Of a stretch of 64,000 bases of DNA, positions 805 through 35,884 are shown piece after piece. Positions within the stretch are counted from its first letter, which is position 1; the number at the start of each line of letters is the position of its first letter. This DNA comes from Spizellomyces punctatus DAOM BR117. Its lineage: Eukaryota. The DNA is taken from NCBI GenBank assembly GCA_000182565.2, contig KQ257451.1, one strand, 5' to 3'. Made by a program: the position numbers and the translations under genes. The notes under the pieces were generated by a model. The model was given only the letters and a program-made list of their open reading frames with translations. It did not search any database and had not been told where the DNA came from.

Positions 805-1031
805 CGTGCGATAGTTTCACGCGAGAAAAACAACACCTCGGATGCCAGGATACGTTCCGCCTTTGTGTGCTTTCTGGGAAGGAATGAAACCCCCACGCGC
901 GGACGGAATCTAGTCTTGAGAGCGGTTCACGGCGTGTAGTTGCTTGCCTTTGGTGGCACGGGTACATCACGTGGACATGGCCTGCCTTTGCAGTGTCCAA
1001 TTTCTCGCCTGGGTAGAGATCACCAATTGAA

Positions 1032-3026
1032 ATGACCGAGGCGGAGAAAAACGACGCATGTAGCGGAGTCGCGGTCGATGCAGCTCAAGTATCCGACCTC
1101 AAACGACCAGTATCCGAACTATCTGATACTACTCCAGGGGAACATGATGAGCCAATTGGGAAGAAGATAAAGGTGGAGCCAATAGAGACCGCAACCGCCG
1201 ACGCCTGTGACACTGAAGAGCAAGTGACGAAAAGCCACGACGGTACCTTCGAATCAGCAGATCAGCAGGAAATCAAAGACGAAGGATGTAGCTCGCCGGA
1301 CGTGAAAACAAAGCAGCCATCGGCAAAAAAGGGCAGAAAGCAAGGTCGAGTTTGGGTTCCAAGAGAAGATACGGGAGAGCCTAAAGAACCAAAGCTACCT
1401 AAAAGAAAAGTGGCTCTTTTGATGGGTTATTGTGGAACTGGGTATAATGGAATGCAAATGTAAGCTTGCAGATATTGTCAGCCCGTGCAAAGGTCAGAGC
1501 TGACAGAGGGTGAATATGGTCATAGTAACCCTGGAGTAGAGACTATCGAGCTCGAGCTTCACAAGGCGCTGGCTGCCGCCGGAGCTGTTAGCAAAGATAA
1601 TGCGATGGACCCACATAAGGTTTTTGGTGCTTGATTTCACCCTACCATCGGTCGTTTCTTAAGCCGTCGTCAGATCGCATTCATGAGGGCTGCAAGAACG
1701 GACAAGGGAGTACATGCTGCTGGGCAGGTATGCTCTCTCAAAATGATAATCGAAGATCCGGATATTGTTACGAAGATAAACAGTCATTTACCTGAGCAAA
1801 TTCGTATTTGGGGTAAGCTATTGTAAAGCTTCTTGATAGTATACTCGGCTCAATATGAACTTTATGTTATAGGCTTTGTAAGGACAAATCGCTCATTCCA
1901 CGCCAAAAATGCTTGCGATGCACGTATCTACGAATACTTCTTGCCGACATATGTACTTCAGGCGGTAGATCCACGTCTGTATCCGTTGAGCGCGGTTGGA
2001 AAAAAAGCTGGCATAAAAGATGCACAACTGTCCTTTGATTATGTGGAGTTGCCAAAGACAGAGCAGAAAGACTTGGAAAACAAGCGTAGCTTCAGAATAG
2101 AACCAGAACAGCTTGACCTGCTAAGGTCCATTTTGAAGGAATATGAGGGAACGCACAACTTTCACAACTTCACAGTAAACAAACGTTTTGAAGACAGGAG
2201 CGCAAACCGCTATATTATCAGTTTTGAGGTATGGGCTTGGAATCGGGATATAGACCCTAACTATTTTGCTGACCAAGTGTGCAATACAGGCCAGCGATCC
2301 CATCATTCGAGGTGGCATCGAATGGGTGAAATGCAAGGTGCTGGGACAATCATTCATGCTTCATCAAATCCGAAAGATGATCGGTGAGTAAGCGACGGGC
2401 ACGCAGTCAAATCCATTTTCTCATATCAAGTTATAGGCCTCGCTATAATGATGGTCAGAACTGGAACTCCGGCATCGTTAGTGGAGCGGACCTTTGAGAA
2501 TGAAAAGTTAAACATCCCGAAAGCGCCAGCGTTGGGGCTCCTCTTGGATAAGGTAAATTGCCGTATCGTCAATTCTAGGTGTTGATGTTATTGTTGCTAA
2601 CCATCGCGTTGACATTTAGACATTGTTTCGAATGTACAACCAGAAGCGCTCCTCGGGAGAAGATGATGCCGTTGATTTCAACAAGTATCAGGTTAGGCCA
2701 TTCTTAGGTCTCAGTGTTTGTCAATAATCTCACCATGCTGTTGATGCAAGGATGTCATTGATGAGTTCAAAGAAAAATGGATATACTCCAAACTGGTACA
2801 GGAAGAGCTCAATGACGCCCAGTTCGACGAATGGGCGCGAGTAATTGATTCAAGATCGGCCGAATACGCGTGGTACTTCAACGACGACGCTACAATATCC
2901 ACTGAACGCAGGCCTCCTTATCTAGAGAAAGGGGCAAAAGGGTTAAAGTCAGATAGACCTCTTCCTCCCGGCGCCGTGGACCTGGTTGGAGATCTGGATG
3001 ATGATGCAGAAGGCGGAGACGAGTAA
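1032..3026 (+). CDS. PUS1: tRNA pseudouridine synthase 1 (TruA family), multi-exon
   Basis: [34 protein letters not shown] (catalytic Asp), [36 protein letters not shown]; stop TAA 3024-3026. Confidence 0.95.
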
Positions 3027-3089: not shown

Positions 3090-4194
3090 CTACGCTAATC
3101 CGTGTGAGCGTAGTCGGAGAGTTAGCTCTTCGATACGACGGTCTTTGAGGTCTACCAATTGCTCGAGCTTGCATATTTTGAGTTGCAACATCTGTAATAG
3201 CTTGGTTTGTCAACGGTTATCCTCTGACAATGGATGCATTATCAGACATTACCTCGACCGTTTCTTGAAGTTCTGCCACCATATCGTGCTTGTGACCATC
3301 ATAGAGATTGCTCTTATGTTCCAAAAACATGTTGGAGGGATGTTCTTCTGCAACGATATGTTCAGCGATCAAATCGTTCTGGGCTTAGTTTCGGTACTTG
3401 CCACTCATCATTGGCATACTCGCTGTTGCCATCCCTACGTGCGTAACAGGTGGGACTGAATCCAGTGGTGCTTGAGATTTCGGAGGGGATACATAATCTT
3501 CACGACTCACAGATGCCTGCCACCCGTGCGAGTGCGAGCCTGACCTAATTTTGGTCATATCATTGTATGACGACCGGTCAAGGGCAGATGTTGACCTTAT
3601 AGCTGAGTTATGCTGCCGGACCTGTCGGGCTAGATAAGCATCGATCTATCGAAAAGTGTTAGTGGGAGCCGGTACGCTATCTGGTCATCAGCTCGGGAAC
3701 GGTATTCTTGCATCGCATTCTACCTTTTGTCTGAGGCCATGTAATAGGTATTCAATGCAACCTGGCCGATTCGATGCTACGTTTTGAATCAGTTCCTCGC
3801 TAACATGGTATCCAATCTTTCGAAAAACTTTTTCTGGTGATCATCATATCGCACGGTAGATAATCAGCTGGATGGCCAGTTCATCCTGATCAAATGTCCC
3901 TTACGATTAAGTGTTTTCCAATTATAAAGCTTTTGGGCCATTCCATTTGCCGGAGGGTAATTGTGTAAATCTACTAGTTTTGGCAAGAAATGCCGAACAA
4001 CTTCTGCTGCCGCAACTGTCAAACGGACTTTAGCAAGAATGAAGGAAACAGCAGTATGATGACAATTCAATGGCCTTACCCGCATCGCTGAAATCTCGCT
4101 GGATGTTGCGCTTTGGCCTTGATAAAGGGATCTCATCTATCCAAGCGTATAGGTCGTCCTCGTCGATCTCTCCAGGTACGAGCTGAGACATCAT
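3090..4194 (-). CDS. SPEF1: Sperm flagellar protein 1 (CH-like domain plus C-terminal coiled coil), multi-exon
   Basis: LYAWIDEIPLSRPKRNIQRDFSDA / AAEVVRHFLPKLVDLHNYPPANGMAQKLYNWKTLNQKVFRKIG; C-terminus LQLKICKLEQLVDLKDRRIEEL. Middle exons not fully resolved. Confidence 0.88.
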
Positions 4195-4429
4195 CGGATT
4201 TCCATTAGATCGTTAAAGTGACACGTTGGACCATCGCGACATCCCAGATTACGTGTACGTGATCGAGCATTTTGCAACATGAACGCTTTCTGCGTGCGGA
4301 TACTAGATTCGCAGCTGCAATAGCTCCAAGTACCTCCTTACGGGCTGTCAGCACATGTAAAAGTTACTTGTAGTGTATTACTATGCCGGACGGTCACAGA
4401 ACGTAAAAAGAAAGTCAATTTGCTATTAA

Positions 4430-4500
4430 TGCGTCCTCCTCGTTTGAACACTCGCTTTAGATGTTACAGTCTAACCCTCTTCCAGTTGAGCTAAGGGCGC
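4430..4500 (-). pseudogene. tRNA-like unit 1 (Phe-like body, 8-nt anticodon loop CTGTAACA, damaged T-arm)
   Basis: Minus strand GCGCCCT TA GCTC AACTGGAA GAGG G TTAGA CTGTAACA TCTAA AGCGAGTG TTCAAAC GAGG AGGACGC A; T5 run at 4405-4409. Confidence 0.75.
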
Positions 4501-4588
4501 TACATGCCATTGTTTGGCGAATAATATTCAGCAAGGAGACTTTCTGTACGCACAAGTACTAAGTGAAAGGACCAAAAAACCCATGCAT

Positions 4589-4654
4589 AGCTGCCTCCGT
4601 GATTTGAACACCGAACCTTTAGATGTTACGGTTTATCACTAGAGCTAAGAGACC
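4589..4654 (-). pseudogene. tRNA-like unit 2 (D-arm partly deleted, 8-nt loop CCGTAACA)
   Basis: GGTCTCT TA GCTC TAGTG ATAAA CCGTAACA TCTAA AGGTT CGGTG TTCAAAT CACGG AGGCAGC; T6 run at 4574-4579. Confidence 0.7.
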
Positions 4655-4975
4655 TCTGCTGTTTTATAATAGATGTCGTCCTCCAGATTGGGGAGGTGCG
4701 CAAAGTAGGCCGCCGAATGAAAGAACGAAAAAAAAAAAGCAGGTCACGACTCACGGGAATGCTCCTTCCCTTTGAGCCAGAGCTTACATATTTGTTCTTC
4801 CTGTTCTTGAATAAGTGATCATCAAGAGAGAAACGTGCGCTCGTCCCGTTGAGACAACAAGGGAAACGGCAATTACTGTTCGATGGACTGCGCTACATGT
4901 ATCCAGACTGGAGCTGGTATCAGAAAAACTGATCCGGCCACAATCACAAAAAAAGAATCCCTAAAGACACGGTCA

Positions 4976-5051
4976 TACTCCCTTCCGTGATTCGAACACG
5001 GAACCTTTGGATCTTAACGGTCTAACGCTCTACCAATTGAGCTAAGAGAGT
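4976..5051 (-). tRNA. tRNA-like unit 3 (near-complete cloverleaf, 9-nt anticodon loop CCGTTAAGA; isotype undetermined, possibly a pseudogene)
   Basis: ACTCTCT TA GCTC AATTGGTA GAGC G TTAGA CCGTTAAGA TCCAA AGGTT CCGTG TTCGAAT CACGG A AGGGAGT A; intact A and B boxes; T7 run at 4948-4954. Confidence 0.75.
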
Positions 5052-5215
5052 TTCCGTATGCACTCTTTTCGTTTTGCAATGTAAGCTCAAAGGAACATAT
5101 GGTTAGCTAACAAGTGGACGTGCATCCAGACTGGCCAGGTACGCACATGTAGGCCCAGGAAAGGAAGAATGGTCCGAACACCGCGGAGAAAAAAGCATAT
5201 TGGTCTACGTGATGA

Positions 5216-5296
5216 TGCTCCCTTCCGCGATTTGAATACGGGTACGGAACCTTTAGATCCTATGGTCTAACGCTCTACCAATTGAGCTAAGGGAGC
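5216..5296 (-). tRNA. tRNA-like unit 4 (8-nt loop CCATAGGA, 6-nt duplication before the T loop; isotype undetermined, possibly a pseudogene)
   Basis: GCTCCCT TA GCTC AATTGGTA GAGC G TTAGA CCATAGGA TCTAA AGGTT CCGTACCCGTA TTCAAAT CGCGG A AGGGAGC A; perfect 7-bp acceptor, D and anticodon stems; T6 run at 5189-5194. Confidence 0.72.
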
Positions 5297-5957
5297 GTAC
5301 AGGTTGTCTCCTTTCGGTTTTCATTATATCACATCTCAAAGCATGCCGATTGGAAGCGGGCACACTGCATTTCCTGTCCGACTACATGCTTGTAGACAGT
5401 GCCAGATATCCGGAGGCGCCCTGCCTCTAACACTGAAGGGAAGATTTGGTCTTTCGTGCTAGATAGTGCTATTCAAGCAGCCCTAGCTGCCGAGATTGTT
5501 ACAGTCTTCCAATGGATTGCGTCTAATACAGTACATTTGCCTCTTTCGTTCCTTTGGAACATTTAAAGGCGCTTTTTGGGGGATGCGCGCATCCCAGCAG
5601 CCGAGATAGCAAAAGCTCATCCATGATGGTGGTCGCTGTAAAGGAACAAGGCACACGATTATCGCCATGTGTCGTATCGAATTGAGGATCTCGGTCCATG
5701 GTGCTCGTAAAAAAGTCATGTCCCTCCAAAAATTGTAAACAAACCAGACAAATGCGCAATACACTCTCCAATATACTACAAATAACGCGCACAAAAGTAT
5801 ACCCTAAAAAGCCTTTGCCCCAGAAGAAATCAGCAACTGTATGACCCACATCATGACCCTCGAGAGAGAACCCAAAATTATACAAAATAGAAATGAAAAA
5901 AAAATGGGGAATATCCAAATCACCAGCAACCGATCATCGTGTCTCAGACGCAACTTT

Positions 5958-8900
5958 TCACCCTTCCGTTGTCCGTGTGCTCGCCATCACATTATTTTCG
6001 TCTCTGTCTCCGCTCCTCCCTCTCCCGCTTACCCTCCTTTTGTTTCGCCCGTCTCCGTTTCCGTTCCTCCAGTTCCTCCGCGTAAAGTTGTAGAGCCCTC
6101 AACAAGTGATTGGGATCGGTCTCAATAGCTGCACCAAGAGACTGAAGAACGCGGGAGAAGCGGGATCGGGTTAGGTAGAGGATGGATACTGCGTTCTATT
6201 GTGTGCGAGTGAATTGCATGAGCATGTTGCGTATGGGGGAGTGGGTTAGTAGAAACAAAAGGACATACCTCAATCCTAGCGACAAGCCCTTCCAAAACTT
6301 TAATTAAGCCCTCCCGATCTGCTTCCTCAACACCTTCAACAGCCCAATCTCCCTCCGTGTCTTCTGGAGGCGTAATGGAATTCGACTCGTCTTCTTTCCA
6401 TTCATCACTGCATCGGGCGGCGAGATACTCTAATCGAAGACAGATGCAGGCAAGTGTTCGGAGTGTGTTGCGGTCGAGTTTGTGGACTTTTTCGCGAGGT
6501 GGTTCGTCGGCTTTGCGTTGAGGCTGTGTTTTTCCGAGTGAGTTTATTTTATGCTATGCGAATGACGATAGAGATGCAATATTACCTGTGCCATGAGATT
6601 CAACCCTCCACTCTGTTCCAATGCAAAGAACCGATGTCGCATGAACAAGTCTCGTCGGTAAATCTGCAAGTTAATGTTTAAGATTCATCGCCAGTATGCC
6701 AAGAGACCAAAATATACCATACCGCATATATAACTTCCGGCGTCTCCAACCCCTTCAGCTTGACCTCTCCAATACACCATGTCACAATCCCCAACTTTTT
6801 CAACCTTGCCACCTCCTCCCCACCATCCACAACTTCGGTCAAGTCCTTGCCGCTCTTGACGCCCTCCCCGACACCACCATCATGCTCCCACCAGCCCAAG
6901 ACATGTTGGAGTTCCTTCATGGCGTCCGAGGAAATGAGGACCTGTCCACCTTGTGAGGCACCGGTGACACGGGCCGCGCGGTTGACCATTGGGCCGTAAT
7001 AGTCCATACGAGACGTAATGGGATCCACTTCACACAGAGGTGCACCGAAATGGATGCCCATGCGGACAGAAAGACCTTTAAAGATCAGCTCGCGTTGTTT
7101 GCGCGGCCGGCCGTCCCCACGTAATCGTCGTCCATCATCGGTCAATTCCACTTCCATATCCGATGATGCGTCCCCGCGGTCTTCCTCATCCCCTAATCCA
7201 GCACCCGAGACAAATTCTGTGGATCCGTTCCGTTGCCACCAAATATCACTTCCGTCCACCATGGCGAGAATCTCGGCTGGCCAATCAATGTTCAGGAGTT
7301 CGCCTTGGACAGTCAAACACCAATCCACTGCGTTGGCAATATTTTGAAAGGAGACCATAAAGGCGTCGCCTTCGGTTTTGACTTCGTATCCCCCGGTTTG
7401 GCGCAACAGACGGCGCATGACCGTGTGGTGGAGACGGAGAGCAGCTCGCATGGCGACAGGATTGTTCTCCCAGATGGAAGTCGAATTTTTGATATCGGTA
7501 AACACCAAAGCAAGACGTCCAATTGGGGGTGCAATCTCCTTGACGAGTAAATCCACCTCCTCACCAGTTTTTTTGCCCTTTTTGACACTTCCGCCTTCTC
7601 GTCGCGTCCGATCCTCAACACTGAGGCTCTCACTCGAGCTCTCTGCACTCCCGCGTCTAGCGCCCGCCGCATTCCACCACGCACTCTTCTTGGCTAAGTC
7701 TCTCAACCCAAGTACCATGACCAGATACCCACCTCCAACGCGTCCACCACCAAGTGACAGCGCCACATCGCGAACCTTCATCGCGGCGGTACTCCACCCT
7801 CCAGATGTTTTGGGGCTCTGTTGTTGATGGGCAGCGAGGTTGGAAGAGCTCTTTGTCATGCCGATGCCGGTGGAGGAGGGCGTTCCGCCGACACTGCCAG
7901 AGACCGTCATTCCCGTAGCTGTACCTGCCCCCGTGGGGTTCGCCGGTGCAACCGCTGACCGAGCAATGTCCACCACCATCTGCGCACCGTCTTCGTACGT
8001 TCCACCGCACTTCACGGCCCGCCAAACGGCGCCACTAGCCAACACCACAAACTCATCTCCGCCCCCCGAAGTGGCAGCAGCGGCAGGATGCTGGCCTGCA
8101 CCCGCATCAACACCACTCTCATCCTCGACACTCGGTGCAGCCAGGTGATGTTTTCGCGATTCCACGCTCTCTTCCCGTTTTAACAGTTCCTCATCATCTC
8201 CCACTTCCAATTCCACAGTCTGAATCCATGGATCGGCATTCACGGCACCTAAAAACGGAAAGAAGCCAAATCCACGCAAGAGATCCACTTCGCCTTCTAA
8301 TTTCCCAGAGGAAGCAAACCATCCGCTTGCGTTCTGCACGCGCTCTATTTCCGAAAGGGACCATGGGATGGGGTCCGAGGCATAGAGTGAACGCTTTTCG
8401 AGCTCTGCGTCGGATCGTTTTGTGGGTTGATTCCCACCACTTGTCGGAGCAGCCGCGGCAGCAGCCGCCATCTTGGCGTGCAGCCTTCCCGCCTCTGCTC
8501 GACTCAATCCCGCCAAATCCAATACATGGTGCTTGGCGAGGACTTGAGCGAGACCGCCCGCCTTGGACATGACCACCATACCGTCTCCCACGTTCGCGAT
8601 ATACAATGTACACTTGGCACCAGCGCGTCTGTGAGGGGATCCATGTAAAAAGACGACCAGTGCTGACGCGCCGTACAGAAGGCCTGGGTGCCCTTTGCCG
8701 TTTTTAGAGCGTCCCATGGTTTGGTCCCATCGCTTGGATTCAGAGGAACTCCTGGGTTGGTGGTGGTATGCTTGTGGGCCAGACGAAGTCGCATCGTCAA
8801 TTTCGTCTCCCATGCTCCCTAACTCGCGGTTCACGGCAATAAAAGTTCGTCTAAGAGCCGTTGTGATCCCATTTGCGTCCAGCGCGCCAGAGCGGGTCGT

Positions 8901-11900
8901 GTCAGCAGGGATGGGTGTACGCTGTCGAGGTACATGGCGGACACTGCCTGGTGCGGATCGATTGCCTGAGGCATTTCCGGTAGCGTTCCCAGTCCCAGGA
9001 GAGGGACCGGAATCACCTGTGGGACTTTTCGTCAAACCTAAATTGACCCCACCCACCTCAGAATGCCGTTCCCGCCCATGCGATGGCTCCTTTTCCAATT
9101 TCTCCAATTCATTGGCAAGAAACCATCCAAACCACTCATTCAAATATTTAGCCATGCGCGCACCACCATGCGTACCGCGTCCGTCGAAAACGGCAAAAAG
9201 CGCTTCATTATCTTTCCCCCGGAACTTGGGAACAACAAGGTCCCATACTTCGAATGTATCTGCATCGCCCTCACGAGTCGTGTTGGGGGTGGTGGTGAAT
9301 CCAATCGCGGGGATAACGTCTTTGGGATTGGGCCGCGTCAAGCAGTCTGCGACACCGTACCGTACCGAACCAGATGGGATGCCAACCATGGGGACTTCAG
9401 ACCCGGTGGTGCGAATCCGCCTCTCCGAACTCTCATCCGGCGGAACAATCAAACACGTGACATCCATTAACCCCAGCAACCGCAAATTGGTCAAAGCGTT
9501 GAAATCCGTTAGATCTCTCCGTCGTTGGGAGGGATTTGCGACCAATGCTCCGGATGTTGCTGGAGCTTGGATGGCGCCGCCTCGGGCTCCAATCTTGTGT
9601 GCAGCGGCAGGGGAGGGCGTGTTCCCAGCGGGCACAGAGTCCGTAAGGAAACTGGAGGCGTTGTTAGTAGAGGGCTTGATTTCCAGACGCTTGTTGCCAG
9701 AAAGGTTGAGGTACTTGAGATCCAAGTTCCAGTTCCTGTACCGATAACATGTCAATACACTATAATATCACCGTCTTCACCGAGCAAAATACACAACTCA
9801 CCAATTCCAATCATACGGCCAATTCGAGACATTATACCTCAACCCCGTTCCCTCACCGCGTCCACCAACTTGACTCCCTAAGTCAAGCGCTTCAAGCCCT
9901 TTCAACTTGCCAACTTCACCCGGAACCGTACTCAATTTATTCCCATTCAAAAATAGCAACTTCAAACTCCGCATGCGCTCAATCTCGCCTGGGAGAGTCG
10001 CGATGAGATTGCCTGATAAATGGAGTTCAACCAGTTTCTGGAACCAGGGTGTCATTGGGATCGGAACGGGGATGGCGACGACCCAGGGAGTTATATCGGT
10101 GATTTCGTTAAAGGAGGCGTGGAGGATAGTTAGGTTGGGGAGGTGGTACAGGGCCATATAGAGATCATCAGAAAGATGGTTTTCGGAAAGATAGAGTTGT
10201 TCAAGAGAATGAGAAAGTGGGGGGAGAGTCACGACTTGTGAGGAAGGTGTAGCAGTAGGAGGTTGCGCCATCGTGAATTCATCAGCTTGCCCAGGAGAGC
10301 GTCCATAAAGATTCAAAACTCCCCCTCGTTCCCCGAAACTTCCGCCAAACGAAAATGCACCTCCGCGTCCAAATGTGACGACTTGTCCTGAGACGAGGAC
10401 GGTACCATCCTCTGGTAGCGGCGTCGGAAAGATTTCAAGACGATTGGAAGTCACATTGAGGATTTTAAGACTCTTGCAGCGCCAAATGCCAGCAGGGAGT
10501 TCGCGGAGATTGTTGTTTTTGGCGTCCAGGTACTGGAGTTTGATCAGTTCGCCGATATCATCTGGGAGGTATTCCAAATAATTATTGGCGACATGCAGCT
10601 CTCGAAGAGACAGACGGACTGGCTCGGATGTTTTGTGAGCTGTGAAATCCGGGAGCTCTTTAAGTCTGTTCCCAGAGAGATTGAGAACCTGTACTCCAGG
10701 AAGTCGCTGAAAGAAGCGCTTGGGGAGGGCCTCAATCCCACAATATCCGATATCCAATTCAGAGAGCGATCCAGAGAGATTAACGAGTCGGAAGACCATG
10801 GACCGGTCATTGTGGGGGTCAAATTGGAAACTCATGGAAAGGTGTTTCAGATTGGGACACTCGAGAGACTTTGACTCCGTGGCTTCTTCAGACGAATCAT
10901 TATCAGATTCCTCTGTCCGCCGATCAGTATTCCAATCACTCCATTTTCCAACCCACCGAACCCGGTTCGCGTCCAGCTGCACAGTCTCTAACTTCTTACA
11001 CCGACATAAAACTTCCATGACCATTGATTCCTCCCCACCTGCATTCCCAAACGAGTTGCCACGTAAATCAAGTTCACGCAAATCCTGAAGCTCACCCAAA
11101 CGCCACGGAAGACCTCCGTACATACGATTGCCAGCCAGCCGTAGCGAAATTAAATGACGCAGCTCGCCAATCGCATCGGGGATCTTCGCTTTTATGCGAC
11201 AAAAGGAGAGGTCAAGGTGCTTGAGCGATAGACCCAAATACCGGCACAAATCTACCGGAAAGGACCTGAACCGATTATTCGACAAGTCAAGCAGCTCCAA
11301 TTTCTGGCATCCCCGTAATAGGTCCTCTGGAATCCGGTCAATCAAGTTACCACCCAAACGCAGCTTCGTCAATCCAGCCACAGATTCAAGTCCTGTTCCT
11401 TCGAGAGAAGTAATCCGATTGTATGACAAATCCACCTCTGAAAGCGTTCGAAGCGATTTCAGTGATTTTGGTACACGGGCGATTTCGTTCCGTGCTAAAG
11501 ACAGCGCGCGGAGCGATTCCATGGCTTGGGCAAGGTCGTTGGGGAGGTCTTGAATGTTGAGGTTGCGCGAGAGGTCGAGGTATCGAATTTCACTAGCGAA
11601 ATGAAACAATGCGACGGGGACGGTGGAAATGTTGAAACCGGACAAGGAAACGAGGGAAGTGTTGAAGGCGGGGGATCGCCAATAATCCGGATGCTAACGA
11701 AAATAAAAAATTTAAAAAGCACATAGGAACGATCTAGGCTACGGCGCAACTCACAATCTCAGTTCCGGTTGAAATCTCCTTGAAAACAAACCGACACAAA
11801 TAAGAATTGTCTTCGCGTCCTAATAGCTCGATCTTGTCTGCCGCCACATATCCTAGCTGCTCGAACAAACGTCGCTGAATTACGAGCGGTCGTTCGGTTC

Positions 11901-14111
11901 GGCCCAGAATGCGTTCTGTCAAAAAAATATAAATAATCGGTGCATGTTCCTTTCAGTCATTTCAAAAACGACAAAGCAACTTACCCGACCCCTTGCGCAC
12001 AATACAAATATTAAACCTTGAGAAATCTGATATAAGACTCTTTTTGGCCATAATGATAAGTAGTTCGCCTGCTGTGGTCGATTCACGGCACGAAATAGTC
12101 GCAAAAGTTCCGTCCCGGCGAAACAGCCTAAACGCGCACTATGCACCAGGTTCAAAGAGTTCATTGTCTCCTTCCCGAGGATATAGTTTATTTTCGCTGT
12201 GAACTTACCAATTTTTCGTCATATAGCTTCTCTTGACTTCCTCTTAGACTATCTCCATCCCCTCGATCATCAAAAGGCGGCAACTCCTCAAAGGGCGTGC
12301 GCAACTCTCCCATACTCGAAGCAGAGGGTATCGTCCCACCCGTCGGGACAGACCGCACAGAAGCATGGTCCGTACTCGTCAACGCTTGTGTCCAGGCCTC
12401 CTGAGGAGTCAAAGTCCGCGCACCCTCGCTATCCAAATGCGTTCCCCAGCTTTCAGGTGGTTGCCATGTGGAAGTGGCTTGAGAGAGAAGGACGTGGGCA
12501 CCTGCGGAAGAAACAGTGTAAGGCCCGGAAGACGGTGGGGGTTGTGGTGCGGGGAGATTGTTGGGCATTTTTTCGGGGGAATAGCCTATCGGTGTGGGAA
12601 CGAGGCCCGAATGGCCAGAGGAAGGGGACAGGGGAGAAACGAGGTCATACGGGACAAAAGAGGGGTCCATGGAGAAATTGGATAGGTCGACTACGGGAAA
12701 CGGTCAGAAGAGCGCGAAGGCTGAGCAATGGACAGTACACTTACGTTGAAGCCGCTTTTCATCTCTCCGTGATCCTTCTCGGCTCTACAAAGAAAATTGA
12801 GAAATTTCGTAGAGAACTTCAATGATACACATTACATACCCGACTATGCTTTGACTTTTTCGTCGGCGTCAAGTGCCCCGTAGATGAATCCCTTGTCACA
12901 ACAGACGTCGCCTCAGACCTCGAAGACGGCGCGCTCCCCTCACTCTTTCGCAACACAACAACATTTTCCGTAGCATGATCAGAGTCTTTGCCCTTTTTTC
13001 TGCCAAACGGATTCCAAAACAGCTTCTTTTTCTCCTTGTGTTCCGTGTTCCACTTGTCTGGGGTGATGGATGGGGGCTTCTTTTCTTTATGGGGAGTGTC
13101 GGGGTTCCACAGGTCGGGGGTGAGAGGTTTTGTGCGTTGCGGGGAGCGTTCGCGAGAGTGTCCGCGGGAACGACTGGATCCGGCGGCGAAAAAGGAGCGA
13201 CTGGATTTCGGCGGGCTGCCAGAGTATTTGGCAGAGTTCATGGATCCGGAAGTGGTTGAAAGGGCTTGGGATGTGACGGACGGGAGAGTCGAACTGGTAC
13301 TTGACAGTGTCCCCGGAATCATGTCTGCGCTCGCCGCTGAGCCTTTGCGCTGTGTCGGACCGTTGTGGTCCGATGAATGCGCTTGCCGTCCAAGATCTTC
13401 CGTAGAGCGTCCGCGGAGGTGAACACGGAGATTACCCCGCAGCCACCCTCTCGACGGTCGTGAATCCTCTTCAGAGGCTCTCGAATGCGGTTCATCGCGT
13501 AGACCTGCTACTATAGCCTGCTCCGATGGTCCACGACGGTACCCAGTATCGGGCATGTTGCGTTGTGCACCCATGTGTGGCGAACCTTGCTGAGAGCCAT
13601 GCTGTGAAGCGGGCTGTGAAGCCGGTTGTGAACTCGGCTGCAACGCAAGTTGCGAACCTGAGTGGGAACCCGTTTGAGAGCCCGTTTGGGAGCCCGTTTG
13701 GGAACCCTTTTGGGAGTCCGTCTGAGATGTGAACCCCGGTAATGAATGCTGCAAATGTCTCTGTGCTAAATGTGAATGCAATTGTGCTGGATGAGTCGGA
13801 GGAGGGGGGAGATCGTGCTGTGGGGGCGGGGGCGGCGGCGGGTATACAGCCTCTCCTTCATGTTCGCGTCCTTGCGACTGATAAAAACGCCGACCGTTCC
13901 CAAATCCGGTTTCCTTCCACCCATCATCATCCGATGCCAACGTGCTTGTCGCGGGAGACAAGTTTGCCGGGGTCAAGCTGGGTGTATTCCCATTTGGACT
14001 GTTCGCATTCGACGCGTAGTTGTACTCGTTGAGTAAATCTTCGAGGAATCGGCCGCTGGCAGACGAGGCTACCGACAAGTGTCCTTGAGCGACGGGACCT
14101 CCGCGGTCCAT
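5958..14111 (-). CDS. CYR1: Fungal adenylate cyclase (disordered N-terminus, Ras-association domain, LRRs, PP2C-like domain, class III cyclase), multi-exon
   Basis: RA: RLFRRDGTFATISC...TERILGRTERPLVIQRRLFEQLGY; LRR ORF 9798-11645 ending LRYNVSNWPYDWNW; PP2C ALFAVFDG...LYIANVGD; cyclase ALVFTDIKNST, YEVKTEGDAFMV, MDYYGPMVNRAARV, VKLKGLETPE; last exon stop TGA 5958-5960. Confidence 0.96.
13580..13726 (-). repeat. 12-bp coding tandem repeat (GSQT/ASQP tetrapeptides) in the CYR1 N-terminus
   Basis: cccgtttgggag-type units encoding SQKGSQTGSQTGSQTGSHSGSQ...SQPASQPASQHGSQQGS. Confidence 0.85.
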
Positions 14112-15169
14112 GGTGGGCCGAGGGGAGGGAGTGTGGGGCGGCCAGAGCAGGTGATTGAAACGGTGAGGTGACGGACGCGACGAAAAGGTGGGATTGTGTT
14201 GAGCGCTGCTAATGTGAATGTTACGTGCGCGTGTTCAATGTTGTGCTGACGAGTACAAATTCCGTGTGCACTCTGAACAACAAGAAAGGCACCCGCACTT
14301 TAGCATATCCCCATTGCGTGTAGTCTTTGCCATGGTCAATAGCGGGTTGTCATGTGTCATCTCCCATTCAATACCATCTCATGCACACATTGCCATCCTC
14401 CAAAACCCGCTAGAACCAATGGTTTCACATCACGTACCTTGCAAGATACCACTCTAAAGCCCCCTACCAAGAAAATGCCAAACCAATAAACACCTGCAAG
14501 TGGAACACATGTAAGATGACCCATTTCTTGTAGGCCTTTTCAAGCCCTCAAAAGTAACACACTCACACTAGCCAAAGGGCAACGTTCACAAACCACAAGC
14601 GTCCCGTCGTCGTCGATGGGTTCCTTCCTATAACAAAAACTCGCTCCCAGCACACAATAACAAGAACAACCAGAAGAAAAAACAGCCCCAAGAAAAGCCC
14701 AAAGCCAGCTTCACCGCAAACGACGACGCCGACCCAAGTTACCACGTGATTCTAAATGACTGTGCCACTCATCAAGAAGGGTGCTTGGCTTGCCCTTGGT
14801 AAACATGTTTGTTTCTTTTTTGTTTACGAATATCTGATATTGATATCGGAGGTTTCGGTCTTTTTTCTTATGGATATTGGAGTGAACAAAGATATTTGGC
14901 ATGTGCAAGTGTATTTTTGGGACATGCGAATGAATGGAACTGTAGATATGGGTTTCTTTTTACATGGATATATACATTTACAAAAGGGATAGGGACTACG
15001 AACTGGAACGTGTTCTTGAATATCAAGATGAGCAAGTACCAAAGTTTTAGATGAACGCCCATTACAAGCCAATCTCCCATCTCCCGGGGTTTCTTCTTTC
15101 TCCTCTGTTGCTGCCCTCGGTATATCGCAACCAATTCGACCCCCATCGGCCCGACCGGTCGCTCCTCCC

Positions 15170-29850: not shown

Positions 29851-30123
29851 AATAAATATACTCGAGCCGTTTGGGGACCCTTGTAACAGTAGGTGAATGC
29901 ACGAAACTAGTATGAAAAACCTTTGCTCCTTTGAACCACACATACAAGCCATTATCTAGATTCTTCAAAATATTCCTAAACACAACTATAAAAGATCATC
30001 CTCTGCTGTCTATAGGGAGCATGAGATAAAAAAAAAAAAGTAAGAAACTACCGTAATGCGCTTTCGCGCAAGTCTATAGATAACCATCCAAGAAACCACG
30101 TCTATCCACTTCCAGCCCGCTTT

Positions 30124-33100
30124 TTACATCCCCTTTTGTTCTTGCTCATCATCGGCATCAGCTTCCATCCATTCTTTATGTTGGGACTCGAGTGATTGGA
30201 GCTAGAAAAAAAAAAAAAAAGATCCATATCGTTGGTATACAGCGACAAGAAAATCACATTCAACAAGGATCGAAGTCTCACCTGTGCTTTTACAGTCCCC
30301 ACTTCCATCTCCAGGATGTGTCGCTCCATCAACAACTCTTTAATCTTTCCATAGGCTTGTACGCTCAGCGCATCAAACCTCTTTCGATCACTGTCCAGAA
30401 CGTCCCGTAATTCCTCCTTCTCTCTCGCTCCTTCACGCACGAGTTCACGCAACCGCACGACTTCTGCCAACAAACTCTGATTCTCGGCTTTAGAAGCATC
30501 CAGATCGGATTGGAGAGTGGAGATGGTCTTTTCCGCAACCTCTTTTGCACTGGTAAGTGACGAGACAGTTGAGAGGGTTTGCGCATGCTTGGTTGACAGC
30601 GTGGTAGCTTCTGCCGACAGTGTCTCCAATTGGGTATTGAGAGCTGCAACAGTCAACACCGTTTGCGTTTGGACTTCCTTCATTGATGCACCACGGGTTT
30701 GGATTTGGACGTGACGGACTTTTTTGCGCGTCCGGGTTGGTGCCGCTACTGGTGGATTACCCGCTGTTGATGTCGACTGTGGCGTTGGCCCAGTACCTGT
30801 GCCGGTTGATACAGGTGTGGGTGATGTAGCCGCAGTGGATGCTGGACTAGGGGTCGCCGCTTCTGACGAAAGGGAAGCCGTGCGGGTTGCGGCGGCTGTC
30901 ATAACGGTCTGGGGCGTTGAGGGAGGAGTGACGGGTGCCGCAACCGGCACTGATGCCGGAGGGGATGTTGTCGTATGAGCATGAGCTGGGGTCGGTTCAG
31001 CAGCAGGTGCCACCGTGGGAGGAGCATGTCCTGTTTGCTGTCCCATTGCAACTCCAGCTCCTACTGCGACCGCAGGGGCACTTTGACTGTTAGTGGGAGC
31101 CCCTTCTCCACCCCGGACTTCATCACCATCTAATGGCTTTCCTGCAGAATACACCAACGAAGATCCCCGCGACGTTATCACCGGTCCCACACCGACACCA
31201 TTCTCTCCGCTTCCACTTCCCTCCCATTGCATCCGTTCCGCTTCCTTGTCCTTCAGTGCTGTAAAAGATGTAGACAATGGCCCGTACTCGAACTCGCCAT
31301 CGGAATCCTCCCAAGCCCCCATCAACTCTTCCACAACCGCAGAAAAACTGACAGTCTTCTTGGGACGTGGTGGTGCCATACCAGGCTTTCGAGTTTTCTC
31401 CGGCCCGACAACATCCGAAATCCCGTACTCAATCATTGCATTCAGCTCGGTGTTTTTGAGCGTTTCTTCGTCTAGATCGTCAAAATCATCAAACCGATCA
31501 TCATCATCGTAGTGATCATCCCAATCGTCATCATCGTCATCATCGTCCGAGAGCAGATAATCATTGCGGTACTCGGGGACGTTGGCCTGGTGCACCATAT
31601 CTTGGGTAACCACATGTGCTGGCGGTTCGACAGAGAGAAATACCTGGTCTTCGAACTTAAAGTTGGACTCAAAAGGAGAGACGTGGAAGGCTTCATCCGG
31701 CATAAGGGATAGCGGGTAGTTCAAGGGCTGCGTCGGCCGTTGATCAACAGCATTCTTTGGTCGCCCTTGCTCACCCAGTCGCCCATGAGGTGAAGGCGAT
31801 CGACGCGGTGGCACGCCTTGCTCTTGTTGTCGCTGAGACTGCGGGTCCTGGTCCATGCGCGGTTGCTGTGGTGGTGAATGATGGACACTCGCACGCTGCT
31901 GAGGCAAAGATTGTTGACGGGGCGGACCAAAGTACGCTTCATACTGTTGCTGTCCTCTGGGTGACGGCGCCCGGAGACCACCTTCCGGTAGCATGGATTC
32001 CGGACGACGTGGTCGGCCGGTTGCAGCTGAAACATCAATGAGAGGTGCCCCGAAACGTCCTTCGTCCTCTGCAATGATGATACTGCGGCGGACTTCGCGA
32101 TTCGATATGTGTGAGGGAACACCAAAATAATCCTTGGAAAGAGGAAAATTGTCATTACCTTACATTGACCATAAAAAAGGCATAGTGATCTCACCTGCTG
32201 TCCTTGCGCTTGATTCTCCTTGTTCGCAAAAGGATCATATGGTATCTTCAACTGAACATGCTTGGGCGGTTGAGCATTCTGCTGGTCCTCTCTCTTATTC
32301 TTCTTTCCAAATCCAAAAAAACCAGTAGACTTTTTCTTTTTCTTTTCCTTATCTTTTTTGGCATCTTTGGCGGATATCACAACACCATCTGGTCCCGTAC
32401 TGCGCAGGAAATCCGCTAGAGACTGCGTTTCGTTCCTTCGAACCGGTGGCGTGTCCATCAGATCGTCGTCGTAGTTGTCGTGAGACTCTGACAATCGAGG
32501 TGGTGCTGTATTTTGCCGCACTGGATGAGTCCGAGAAGGGATGTGTACGCCGTTAGGCTGTTGTGCGTGTTGCTGCTGGGGATGCTGTGGTTGTTGCTGT
32601 CCAGGAGTGGACACGTAATCGTAAAAAGCAGATTGCGAAGCCAGAGCTCTGTCAATAGAATTATCTGACAGGTCGTCTTCGGACTGATATCGTCGGTCTG
32701 AGGATAAGGTGATCCTAGTCGTAGCAGTATTGTTTTCCAAAATTCTCTCAAACTCTTCTGCAGTCATGACCTTGCCAGCCTTGGCACCCTGCTGCTGCTG
32801 CTGTTGTTTCTGTAGCTGCACCTGTTGGGCATTGCCAGTACCGTAACTTCCCTTACCCTGATAACGAACAACGACAAATGTATCGGCGGGCAAGAACACA
32901 GAAAAGTGCCCGGCAAGTTTCCAACAAAGGACGGAAGCAAAGTGGATGGTGCGTCCCAACGTTCAATTTCCATCACACGGTCATTGTGCAAGTGTGAAAA
33001 AGGGCGGGAGAGCGCGAAAGGCGATGATTACGTAATGACGGTTCAGATGGTAAGGAGAAGAAAAGGGCACACGAGGTAGAAGGACGAGCACAAACGAGGA

Positions 33101-34078: not shown

Positions 34079-35884
34079 TCAGAAACGCCTAGCGCGGAGA
34101 TTGTACCTTTTTCCGCCGCTCCGGTTTGATGTCGGTGTCGTCTGCGATGTAGGAGCTGTGCTCGGTTGCTGACCTTTTACTGATGATGTCTGGCGCGATG
34201 GTGTGCTGGTAGCTATCGGAACTGTCGCAGGATTGGGTGTAGAGACGCGTTGAGCCGCGCCAAGAGTGGTCCGCACTCGCTGTAATACAGTTGATGATGC
34301 TTGAACCGTTCCGGCCTTGCCATGAACTGTTTGAGCAGTGATTGCAGTATTTGAAGATCTCGGCGGCACTGCGGTGGGGACGGGACGCGAGACTGTGCCA
34401 GCGCCTCGCTGAACCGTGCCAGGTGCATTCGTTGTCGACACACGTCCAGTTGCAGCGGGAGTGGTCAACACTCGATTTGCAACAGTGGAAGAGTTTGATG
34501 ATCGTGGTGGCACCGCCGTCTGAATAGGGCCCGACACTGTATGGCCTGCTCGCGGAGTTTCGCCAGGTGAATTCTGAGGTGTGGGCATGGTGTGCGGTGC
34601 TACTGCTGTCATAATCGGATGTACGATCGTGGACACCTGATTAATCGTTACTTGCCGATTTTGTGACATGGTATGCGTGGCTACTGGCGTCATGATCGGA
34701 TGTACCATTGACGAGACTTGAATCGTTACTTGCCGATTTTGAGACATGATATGCGTGGCTAATGGCGTCATGATCGGATGTACCATTGACGAGACTTGAA
34801 TCGTCACTTGCTGATTTTGAGACATGGTATGCGTGGCTACTGGCGTCATGATCGGATGTATCATTGACGAGACTTGAATCGTCACTTGCCGATTTTGAGA
34901 CATGGTATGCGTGGGGGTGGGCGTCCCTTGGACGTTTGTCTGAATAGGTGGGATATTCTGCGTCGCAATAGGAGATGCCACTGTCGAATGGATCATGGTT
35001 TGATCCGTCGGCACAGCAATCAAGGTCGGGTTTGTCAAAATGCGATTCGGAAGCATGGGATGGGTCGGGGTAGGTGCTAACGTTGACTGACCGACTTGAA
35101 TCGTCTGAACAGGAGGTAGCGGTTGAATACTAGTTGAACCCTGCTGGACTGTGATTATTGTCGAGATGGGCTGAGCAGGCGTCGGTGTTGGTTGGCCATT
35201 ATGAACCCCACTTATAACTACAACTTGCGAAGACGGCGGTATAGCAATTCGTGACGTTTGTGCCCGGCAATTCTGAATCACAGTTGTGGTAATCACTGGA
35301 CAGTTGCATACTGCTGTAGCTGCTGCGGCACCAATCGTAGCTGGAGGGATTATGACGGAAATGTCTTGCAGTGTCGTTGATGTCGGGTTGGACGTAACTG
35401 GGGACACATCTGTCCGGTCAGGCGTGATAATGTTGACGATAGGCGACTGCACTCCAACGGGTCGGGTAGCTGTGACGATCACAGTGTCCAAAGTATTTCC
35501 AGGAATGGGAGTCGGTTGCACTCCAAAAGTCACGATTTGAATTCCACCCTGGGTAGTAGGCGTCCCAATCTGTTCACTGCTCCTAGTAGCAACCTGAATC
35601 GTAGGCTGGGGAGTAGGCGTCCCAATCTGTTCACTGCTCCTAGTAGCAACCTGAATCGTAGGCTGGGGAGTGGGCGTCCCAATCGGTTCACTGCTCCTAG
35701 TAGCAACCTGAATCGTAGGCTGGGGAGTAGGCGTCCCAATCGGTTCGCTGTTCCCAGTAGCAACCTGAATTCCAGGCTGGGGAGTAGGCGTCCCAATCGG
35801 TTCGCTGTTCCCAGTAGCAGTCTGAATCTCAGGCTGGGGAGTAGGCGTCCCATTCTGAACAGATTCACCGTTGCTAGTAGCAGC
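34079..35884 (-). CDS. Thr/Pro/Val/Gln-rich tandem-repeat protein, terminal exon (upstream part lost in or beyond the gap)
   Basis: Open frame of 602 codons from a poly-T...TAG acceptor at 35885 to stop 34079. Confidence 0.75.
   Translation of the reverse strand, partial: AATSNGESVQNGTPTPQPEIQTATGNSEPIGTPTPQPGIQVATGNSEPIGTPTPQPTIQVATRSSEPIGTPTPQPTIQVATRSSEQIGTPTPQPTIQVATRSSEQIGTPTTQGGIQIVTFGVQPTPIPGNTLDTVIVTATRPVGVQSPIVNIITPDRTDVSPVTSNPTSTTLQDISVIIPPATIGAAAATAVCNCPVITTTVIQNCRAQTSRIAIPPSSQVVVISGVHNGQPTPTPAQPISTIITVQQGSTSIQPLPPVQTIQVGQSTLAPTPTHPMLPNRILTNPTLIAVPTDQTMIHSTVASPIATQNIPPIQTNVQGTPTPTHTMSQNRQVTIQVSSMIHPIMTPVATHTMSQNQQVTIQVSSMVHPIMTPLATHIMSQNRQVTIQVSSMVHPIMTPVATHTMSQNRQVTINQVSTIVHPIMTAVAPHTMPTPQNSPGETPRAGHTVSGPIQTAVPPRSSNSSTVANRVLTTPAATGRVSTTNAPGTVQRGAGTVSRPVPTAVPPRSSNTAITAQTVHGKAGTVQASSTVLQRVRTTLGAAQRVSTPNPATVPIATSTPSRQTSSVKGQQPSTAPTSQTTPTSNRSGGKRYNLRARRF
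34600..34915 (-). repeat. 78-bp tandem repeat, about 4 copies (THTMSQNRQVTIQVSSMVHPIMTPVA)
   Basis: gagacatg recurs at 34741, 34819 and 34897 (period 78). Confidence 0.95.
35551..35884 (-). repeat. 57-bp tandem repeat, about 6 copies (PQPTIQVATRSSEQIGTPT)
   Basis: gtaggcgtcccaatc at 35556, 35613 and onward (period 57). Confidence 0.95.

Follow-up and report, generated by a model that had tools for sequence, protein, structure and literature searches.

A stretch of 64,000 nt from Spizellomyces punctatus DAOM BR117 (contig KQ257451.1 of assembly GCA_000182565.2; the whole stretch is referred to here as the window) was found to contain a tandem array of tRNA-derived units with enlarged anticodon loops (designated here as U1 to U4, with a probable fifth unit, termed the remnant, between U2 and U3). 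With a probability of roughly 0.55, this array is a tandem cluster of tRNA genes that has been disabled and is undergoing progressive decay, its two best copies, U3 and U4, remaining as look-alikes competent for transcription by RNA polymerase III (Pol III). According to this scenario, the founder would have been a single nuclear Pol III tRNA gene that gained an extra loop base before local duplication at the DNA level, and the loop insertion, together with a later U33-to-C change in three copies, would have abolished normal triplet decoding. The copies would then have decayed one at a time, with U1, U2 and the remnant now dead and varying freely between haplotypes. U3 and U4 would persist as look-alikes rather than decoders, any remaining constraint acting on the body (its structure or internal promoter) and not on the anticodon.

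An earlier sequence-only reading of the window had described four minus-strand units at 4405-5296 as a tandem array of tRNA-derived units on one strand, and both the arrangement and the coordinates proved exact. The units correspond to U1 (4430-4500; loop CTGTAACA, 8 nt), U2 (4589-4654; loop CCGTAACA, 8 nt), U3 (4976-5051; loop CCGTTAAGA, 9 nt) and U4 (5216-5296; loop CCATAGGA, 8 nt), with U3 being the best preserved, U1 dead or dying and U2 dead. The expanded loops claimed for U1-U4 were thus recovered at 8, 8, 9 and 8 nt, and all four are variants of one 8-mer. The anticodon stem TTAGA/TCTAA was likewise present as described, including ATAAA on the 5′ side in U2 and TCCAA on the 3′ side in U3, whereas the AGGT said to follow this stem was retained in U2, U3 and U4 but not in U1. 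Motif searches of the 64-kb window returned three copies of a D-arm 19-mer (at most 3 mismatches; 0.01 expected) and two copies of a T-arm 21-mer (0 expected). As judged from these sequence features, the units are derived from tRNA and arranged in tandem on one strand.

Every unit is also followed on its own strand by the run of five to seven T residues that had been claimed for it: a T5 run at 4405-4409 (20 nt downstream of U1), a T6 run at 4574-4579 (9 nt downstream of U2), a T7 run at 4948-4954 (21 nt downstream of U3) and a Pol III terminator-like T6 run at 5189-5194 (21 nt downstream of U4). The remnant, located on the minus strand at about 4760-4845, is followed after 21 nt by a T11 run at 4728-4738, so that the gap measures 20-21 nt in four of the five cases. 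The chance of a run of at least five T residues at most 40 nt from a random site in the window was p=0.06.

When the repeat segments were aligned, the remnant was positioned in register with the other segments; its 3′ acceptor strand and trailer are recognizable, and its 5′ part is scrambled. Local alignment of the remnant with the acceptor-3′/trailer region of U3 produced a 19-column match, but the overall local-alignment score of the remnant was reached by 27 of 300 and 72 of 300 shuffles and is not significant alone. Additional evidence was obtained from three raw-read DNA runs filed under the same species label (chromatin immunoprecipitation (ChIP) libraries with 38-51-nt reads), which were mapped to 4380-5400 at 80% likeness and were shown to contain a second, divergent haplotype that predominates in run X17. 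In this run, 11 reads depart from the window sequence at 4769, and the reverse complement of their continuation reads as the 5′ acceptor strand of a tRNA followed by the first part of a D stem, indicative of a unit at the remnant's place in the other haplotype. The surrounding segment, 4712-4852, is structurally different in the second haplotype, with loose read ends at 4712, 4769 and 4852, and the two haplotypes are probably unlike in how many units they contain or in what condition these are.

The sequence-only reading had called for covariance-model scoring, and this separated the better units from the poorer ones. With the Rfam tRNA model RF00005 (gathering threshold of 29 bits), only U3 (42.5 bits) and U4 (39.5 bits) passed, while U1 scored 21 bits and no Rfam tRNA match was returned for U2 even at E≤10. 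The same model assigned 52.3-75.5 bits to the 11 complete ordinary tRNAs in the metagenome loci used here, all of which exceeded U3 and U4, the latter being at least ~10 bits below the lowest of them. ARAGORN reported only U3, labelled 'tRNA-Stop (tta)' via a shifted stem register; at a lowered threshold it also reported U4, as 'tRNA-???' with the 4-base anticodon atag. A 'tRNA-Leu' proposed in the ARAGORN intron mode, which joined the 5′ half of U4 to the 3′ half of U3 across a 247-nt 'intron', was dismissed as an artefact of tandem copies, and sub-threshold Rfam matches to ssnA, Deinococcus Y RNA and DicF (E 0.26-9) were considered to be due to chance. A scan of the locus for bacterial promoters and terminators, irrelevant for this DNA, found nothing.

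Cloverleaf pairs were counted by hand, as the extra A described below is absent from U1 and U2 and their 3′ acceptor strands are misaligned by MAFFT. The counts amounted to 20 of 21 in U4, 20 of 21 in U3 (21 of 21 in its other allele), 16 of 21 in U1 and 12 of 21 in U2. Minimum-free-energy folding gave a cloverleaf-like structure only for U3 (z=-2.36) and U4 (z=-2.7); U1 displayed z=+0.37, and the minimum-free-energy fold of U2 was without a cloverleaf. The lesions are distinct for each unit: the T arm of U1 is broken, the D arm of U2 is 8 nt short, the T arm of U4 bears a 6-nt tandem duplication with loss of the G53-C61 pair, and the U3 allele of the window has an A29·C41 mismatch in its anticodon stem. 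In both U3 and U4, the T stem is followed by an additional A that pairs with T8. The acceptor stem is thereby extended to 8 bp (canonically 7), the linker to the D stem is reduced to one base (canonically two) and the acceptor/T helix reaches 8+5=13 bp as compared with the canonical 12 bp. The canonical spacing is kept in U1 and U2, where 6 of 7 and 5 of 7 acceptor pairs, respectively, were counted by hand.

Beyond these lesions, the A/B-box-like D-arm and T-loop motifs are retained in U3 and U4, the D and T loops and the nucleotides of tertiary pairs were found by manual inspection to be canonical and cytosolic in type, and the variable loop of U3 measures 5 nt. The internal boxes and the downstream T-run are those by which a Pol III tRNA-type gene is recognized in sequence, and they mark U3 and U4 as competent at the level of sequence. 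The combination of a near-perfect cloverleaf, A/B-box-like sequence, an upstream A/T-rich block and a T-run suggests that both units are probably recognizable to TFIIIC and Pol III.

Decoding is a different matter, as none of the units has a canonical 7-nt loop with U33: T33 occurs in U1 only, and C occupies this position in the other three. With the loop expanded in all units, U33 lost in three and the loop letters specific to individual lineages, a shared role in triplet, quadruplet or suppressor decoding is very unlikely. This bears on the suggestion, made in the sequence-only reading, that the units are recoding tRNAs. Such a role, considered here as that of quadruplet (+1 frameshift) decoders or, in the case of U3, of an ochre-type suppressor, is regarded as extremely improbable. 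Such a role would be in line with the 8-nt loops that are typical of the +1 frameshift suppressors SufB2 and SufJ, which arise by a one-base insertion in the anticodon loop as in the array, and with the ARAGORN labels of U3 and U4. However, those suppressors, as far as the sources covered describe them, keep U33, a defined 4-base anticodon and an intact, high-scoring body, and the array departs from all three: C33 is present in three of four loops, the putative 4-5-base anticodons differ (GTAA in U1 and U2, GTTAA in U3 and ATAG in U4) and the covariance scores are low. The 'tta' call for U3 requires, when examined by hand, a shifted stem with two mismatches, and recoding is not called for by the long, uninterrupted standard-code open reading frames (ORFs) of the window. 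Position 37 of a tRNA is normally a purine, whereas U1 and U2 both carry C there. The extra base that creates the 13-bp acceptor/T helix in U3 and U4 also argues against decoding. A 13-bp acceptor/T helix is a feature of selenocysteine tRNA, and this is the only trait that U3 and U4 share with it, since the array is without a UCA anticodon (the loops lack TCA), a long variable arm and a 6-bp D stem.

The units had also been assigned to tRNA-Phe, an assignment that was not sustained, because GAA is absent from all four loops and the body occurs with several anticodons. Metagenome contigs were scanned for the exact D-arm 3′ half, anticodon stem and variable-loop start, with loops of 7-9 nt allowed, and this identified six loci with the same body. 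All six have a 7-nt loop with T33, and their anticodons are GAA, GTT (twice), GGC, TCC and TAC; among the 11 ordinary tRNAs scored above, the three with the identical exact body reached 65.9-75.5 bits. A body that is common to ordinary tRNAs with five anticodons does not identify the isotype, and the combination of D arm and anticodon stem is, as a practical caution, unreliable as an isotype label.

The oversized loop itself is most simply viewed as ancestral to the array, with an inferred ancestral 8-mer close to C-Y-G-T-A-A-S-A. Such a loop can be derived from a GAA loop by gain of a T or, equally, from a GUA (Tyr-type) loop by gain of one base at the 37/38 junction. Of the proposed one-base insertion prior to amplification, the ancestral enlargement is accordingly retained, while the Phe origin is not, as the Tyr-type route is equally short. 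A tRNA intron of 1-2 nt was rejected as the source of the additional bases because the would-be anticodons are inconsistent between copies. An intron of 1-2 nt could not form the structure that the splicing endonuclease requires.

DNA read depth was flat across the units in all three DNA runs, with 1, 51 and 25 reads aligned only in part, and no 1-nt deletion was called in any anticodon loop in these runs; together, these observations indicate the absence of both a dispersed family and a close 7-nt-loop parent. Rfam and motif searches revealed no further copies in the 64-kb window. U3 and U4, conversely, share more than their bodies. An A/T-rich, TATA-like block upstream of U4 (5308-5341) is homologous to a block upstream of U3 (5063-5092), with 8 of 300 shuffles reaching the alignment score, and downstream spacer islands at 4895-4911 (U3 segment) and 5118-5134 (U4 segment) are identical at 15 of 17 positions (4 of 300 shuffles), all on the minus strand. 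The matching offsets of these flank islands indicate that a whole unit of ~240 bp was duplicated as DNA. Local tandem duplication also underlies tandem nuclear tRNA arrays such as those of plants, which are canonical and decoding as far as the cited text describes them (PMC12652284).

These findings leave little room for a SINE-like element (short interspersed element), the third option of the sequence-only reading. Repeated landing of a tRNA-derived SINE or other mobile family at this site would account for the fact that the flanks of most unit pairs are unrelated, at shuffle level, and the units resemble SINE heads in their tRNA-like form, internal A/B boxes, T-runs and Pol III type. Nevertheless, the units are neither dispersed nor multi-copy, as read depth was flat in all three runs even at 80% likeness, and they are without a tRNA-unrelated body or tail. 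Their uniform orientation, regular spacing and the islands at matching offsets around U3 and U4 point in the same direction, rendering repeated insertion a very slim prospect.

A mitochondrial or other organellar tRNA gene that moved to the nucleus and was then duplicated would provide a different founder. Natural 8-nt anticodon loops are organellar in the cases described, for example yeast mitochondrial tRNA-Thr1, in which such a loop is fixed (PMC4267643). As far as that source shows, tRNA-Thr1 is encoded by a single organellar gene, its loop is conserved and its part in decoding has been established, and none of these properties holds, or is in evidence, for the array units. The fully canonical, cytosolic-type D and T loops and tertiary-pair nucleotides, the T-runs at a fixed distance and a G+C content of ~47%, like that of the surroundings, make an organellar founder highly unlikely.

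The most substantial alternative concerns U3 and U4, and it would apply to the whole array in the past. It holds that they encode a tRNA-like Pol III RNA that is functional but takes no part in decoding. Selection would maintain the cloverleaf body and the 13-bp acceptor/T helix of this RNA and leave the enlarged loop unconstrained, and the three degraded units would be discarded copies. This is a possible, although doubtful, explanation, and it draws on the comparison between paralogues. The bodies are 67-82% identical, as compared with 43-57% for the 60-nt flanks, the latter being near shuffled controls (means 47-51%), and the bodies are more conserved than the flanks in every unit pair (p~5e-6 for U3/U4). 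A conserved body with highly divergent flanks has been reported as a mark of active tRNA genes (Thornlow et al. 2018, in the part of PMC6130373 that was covered). Furthermore, the loop is the most diverged part of U3 and U4 (4 of 9 positions versus 7 of 67 in the rest of the body, p=0.02), a perfect 8-bp acceptor stem is common to both units and every T-run has been kept. Pair-preserving double changes were observed in acceptor stems at 1:72 in U3 and at 3:70 in the window's U1; the former, A1-T72 in U3 versus G1-C72 in U4, had been noted in the sequence-only reading and is real. Where U3 and U4 differ by a single stem change, the change is compatible with pairing in two cases and disruptive in two, as expected for neutral transitions.

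Variation between the haplotypes was distributed unevenly over the array. The numbers of differences were 7 in 71 nt (U1), 6 in 66 nt (U2), 6 in 86 nt (remnant), 1 in 76 nt (U3) and 0 in 81 nt (U4), with 20 in the 641 nt of spacers. U3 and U4 combined (1/157) thus differ from the degraded units (19/223) with p=0.0003, a contrast that also favours a functional RNA, and the degraded units differ from the spacers with p=0.002. The contrast between U3+U4 and the spacers alone is weak (p=0.097), which tempers the argument for constraint; the numbers are small, variants in the spacers have probably been called too rarely at places to which reads could not be mapped, and the conservation of U4 rests mainly on runs X16 and X18, as run X17 provides little depth over U4 and immediately upstream of U3. 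The sole U3 variant, at position 5009, converts TCCAA to TCTAA and restores the A29-U41 pair. This toggle of a stem pair is a further point for a functional RNA, and as the paired state is that of the other units, the U3 allele of the window carries a fresh disruptive mutation.

In the degraded units, several window-allele states in the T stems of U1 and U2 and in the anticodon stem of U2 were recognized by hand as derived pair losses, the other haplotype still being paired. The T5 run of U1 is interrupted in the other haplotype by a substitution at 4405 and a 1-nt deletion at 4406. At the 3:70 pair of U1 (4433 and 4498), the window haplotype has G3-C70, and U3 and U4 have T3-A70; the other haplotype of U1 has A70 with no variant called at position 3, i.e. 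an unpaired intermediate, so that a compensatory change is apparently segregating in an otherwise dead-looking unit.

Several of these results weigh against a cluster that is simply decaying. Only a single haplotype difference is present in the 157 nt of U3 and U4. Moreover, neutral copies should diverge like their flanks, which implies that the body with the 8-nt loop was either conserved for a long time or homogenized. Such prolonged conservation would fit a functional tRNA-like RNA better than pure decay. Together with the two pair-preserving double changes in acceptor stems, it leaves two histories for the array, which either spent a large part of its past as a functional tRNA-type cluster or had its bodies homogenized. 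The option of a decaying array, as raised in the sequence-only reading, is suitable for U1, U2 and the remnant, whereas U3 and U4 are well preserved. Against a functional RNA, on the other hand, stand the 6-nt T-arm duplication and lost G53-C61 pair of U4, the weak contrast with the spacers, the possibility that the appearance of selection is produced by gene conversion confined to the bodies, and the RNA data.

RNA evidence was limited to one run (X15), an ordinary cDNA library of which ~6% was read; such a library would miss RNA of tRNA size. Thirty-seven RNA reads were located on the 1021-nt stretch, with a depth of 0-2.5 over U3 and U4, and no convincing sense-strand RNA was detected over these two units in this fraction of the run. 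The reads over U3 and U4 are mostly opposite in orientation to those over the 5′ region of the SPEF1-like gene, which lies on the same strand as the array. In addition, the three ChIP libraries, of unspecified target, displayed no peaks over the units.

In the same RNA run, 13 minus-sense molecules, partly aligned, have their ends at precisely position 4591, which falls within the U2 3′ acceptor strand. Minus-sense RNA covers 4555-4591 and 4380-4449, and the minus strand reads c-a-g just before 4591. These ends more likely represent the 5′ end of the SPEF1-like mRNA or a splice acceptor than a product of U2, in which case part of the array would be situated inside the 5′ untranslated region or an intron of the SPEF1-like gene.

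The closest known kind of element, on the features described, is a nuclear tRNA pseudogene or look-alike cluster. 'tRNA-lookalikes' have been described in nuclear genomes (Telonis et al. 2014, PMC4189335), and criteria for tRNA pseudogenes are provided with tRNAscan-SE 2.0 (PMC8450103); both sources are drawn on here in part. The units resemble such elements, to the extent that they are described there, in their tRNA derivation, sub-par covariance scores, altered anticodon region and partial cloverleaf. The array differs from them in being a five-copy, same-strand tandem array from one founder with an expanded loop throughout, and in containing two copies that are more conserved than their flanks and sister copies. 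The literature search, within the text that it covered, brought up no fungal or chytrid family of nuclear cytosolic tRNAs with loops of 8-9 nt.

If the array is a dying cluster, it constitutes a tidy but ordinary case of the loss of a redundant tRNA array, in which all copies inherited one disabling loop insertion and then decayed at unequal rates, as can be seen even when the haplotypes are compared. Its significance would be greater if U3 and U4 were transcribed and constrained, as nuclear tRNA-shaped RNAs with a conserved body and an enlarged, variable loop are few in the literature covered. The strongest form of this idea, in which U3 and U4 are expressed and belong to an undescribed nuclear family of Pol III tRNA-like RNAs, with selection on the cloverleaf and its 13-bp acceptor/T helix and an 8-9-nt loop that evolves freely, is considered rather unlikely. 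If it were true, a tRNA scaffold would have been re-used, for example as a processing signal or regulator beside the flagellar SPEF1-like gene or as a chromatin boundary dependent on the RNA fold, and the dead neighbours would be a record of turnover within the family.

With regard to genomic context, the array lies in the interval between SPEF1 and CYR1, as had been stated in the sequence-only reading. It is located downstream of a gene for a CYR1-type adenylate cyclase (6678-11693, minus strand; LRR, PP2C-like and cyclase regions) and ~240 nt upstream of the start codon of the SPEF1-like gene, with all three on the same strand. The latter gene encodes a SPEF1-type CH domain (Pfam CH_2, E=5e-11) at 3864-4136 on the minus strand, and its N-terminal exon, contained in the minus-strand ORF 4030-4212, begins near 4190. 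A TruA/PUS1-like gene occupies about 1017-3026 on the plus strand, and the Pfam search of the window also identified a Zn2Cys6 factor and a Gti1/Pac2 protein. The gene content is thus of a eukaryotic, fungal type, and the co-occurrence of a flagellar gene with these two fungal factors favours, on the basis of Pfam domains, a flagellated (zoosporic) fungus.

Three further long ORFs in the window, at 12819-14234 (minus strand), 30102-32159 and 34079-35884, would encode proteins of 471-685 aa without a Pfam family, and a protein search with the first of these gave no relative; they may represent lineage-specific genes or low-complexity frames. Finally, one of the metagenome contigs (L005) was shown to contain, at 374-1224, eight ordinary same-strand tRNA genes within 850 nt (Leu, Val, Val, Leu, Cys, Thr, Ile and Arg), a cluster that is organellar- or bacterial-looking and unrelated to the window.

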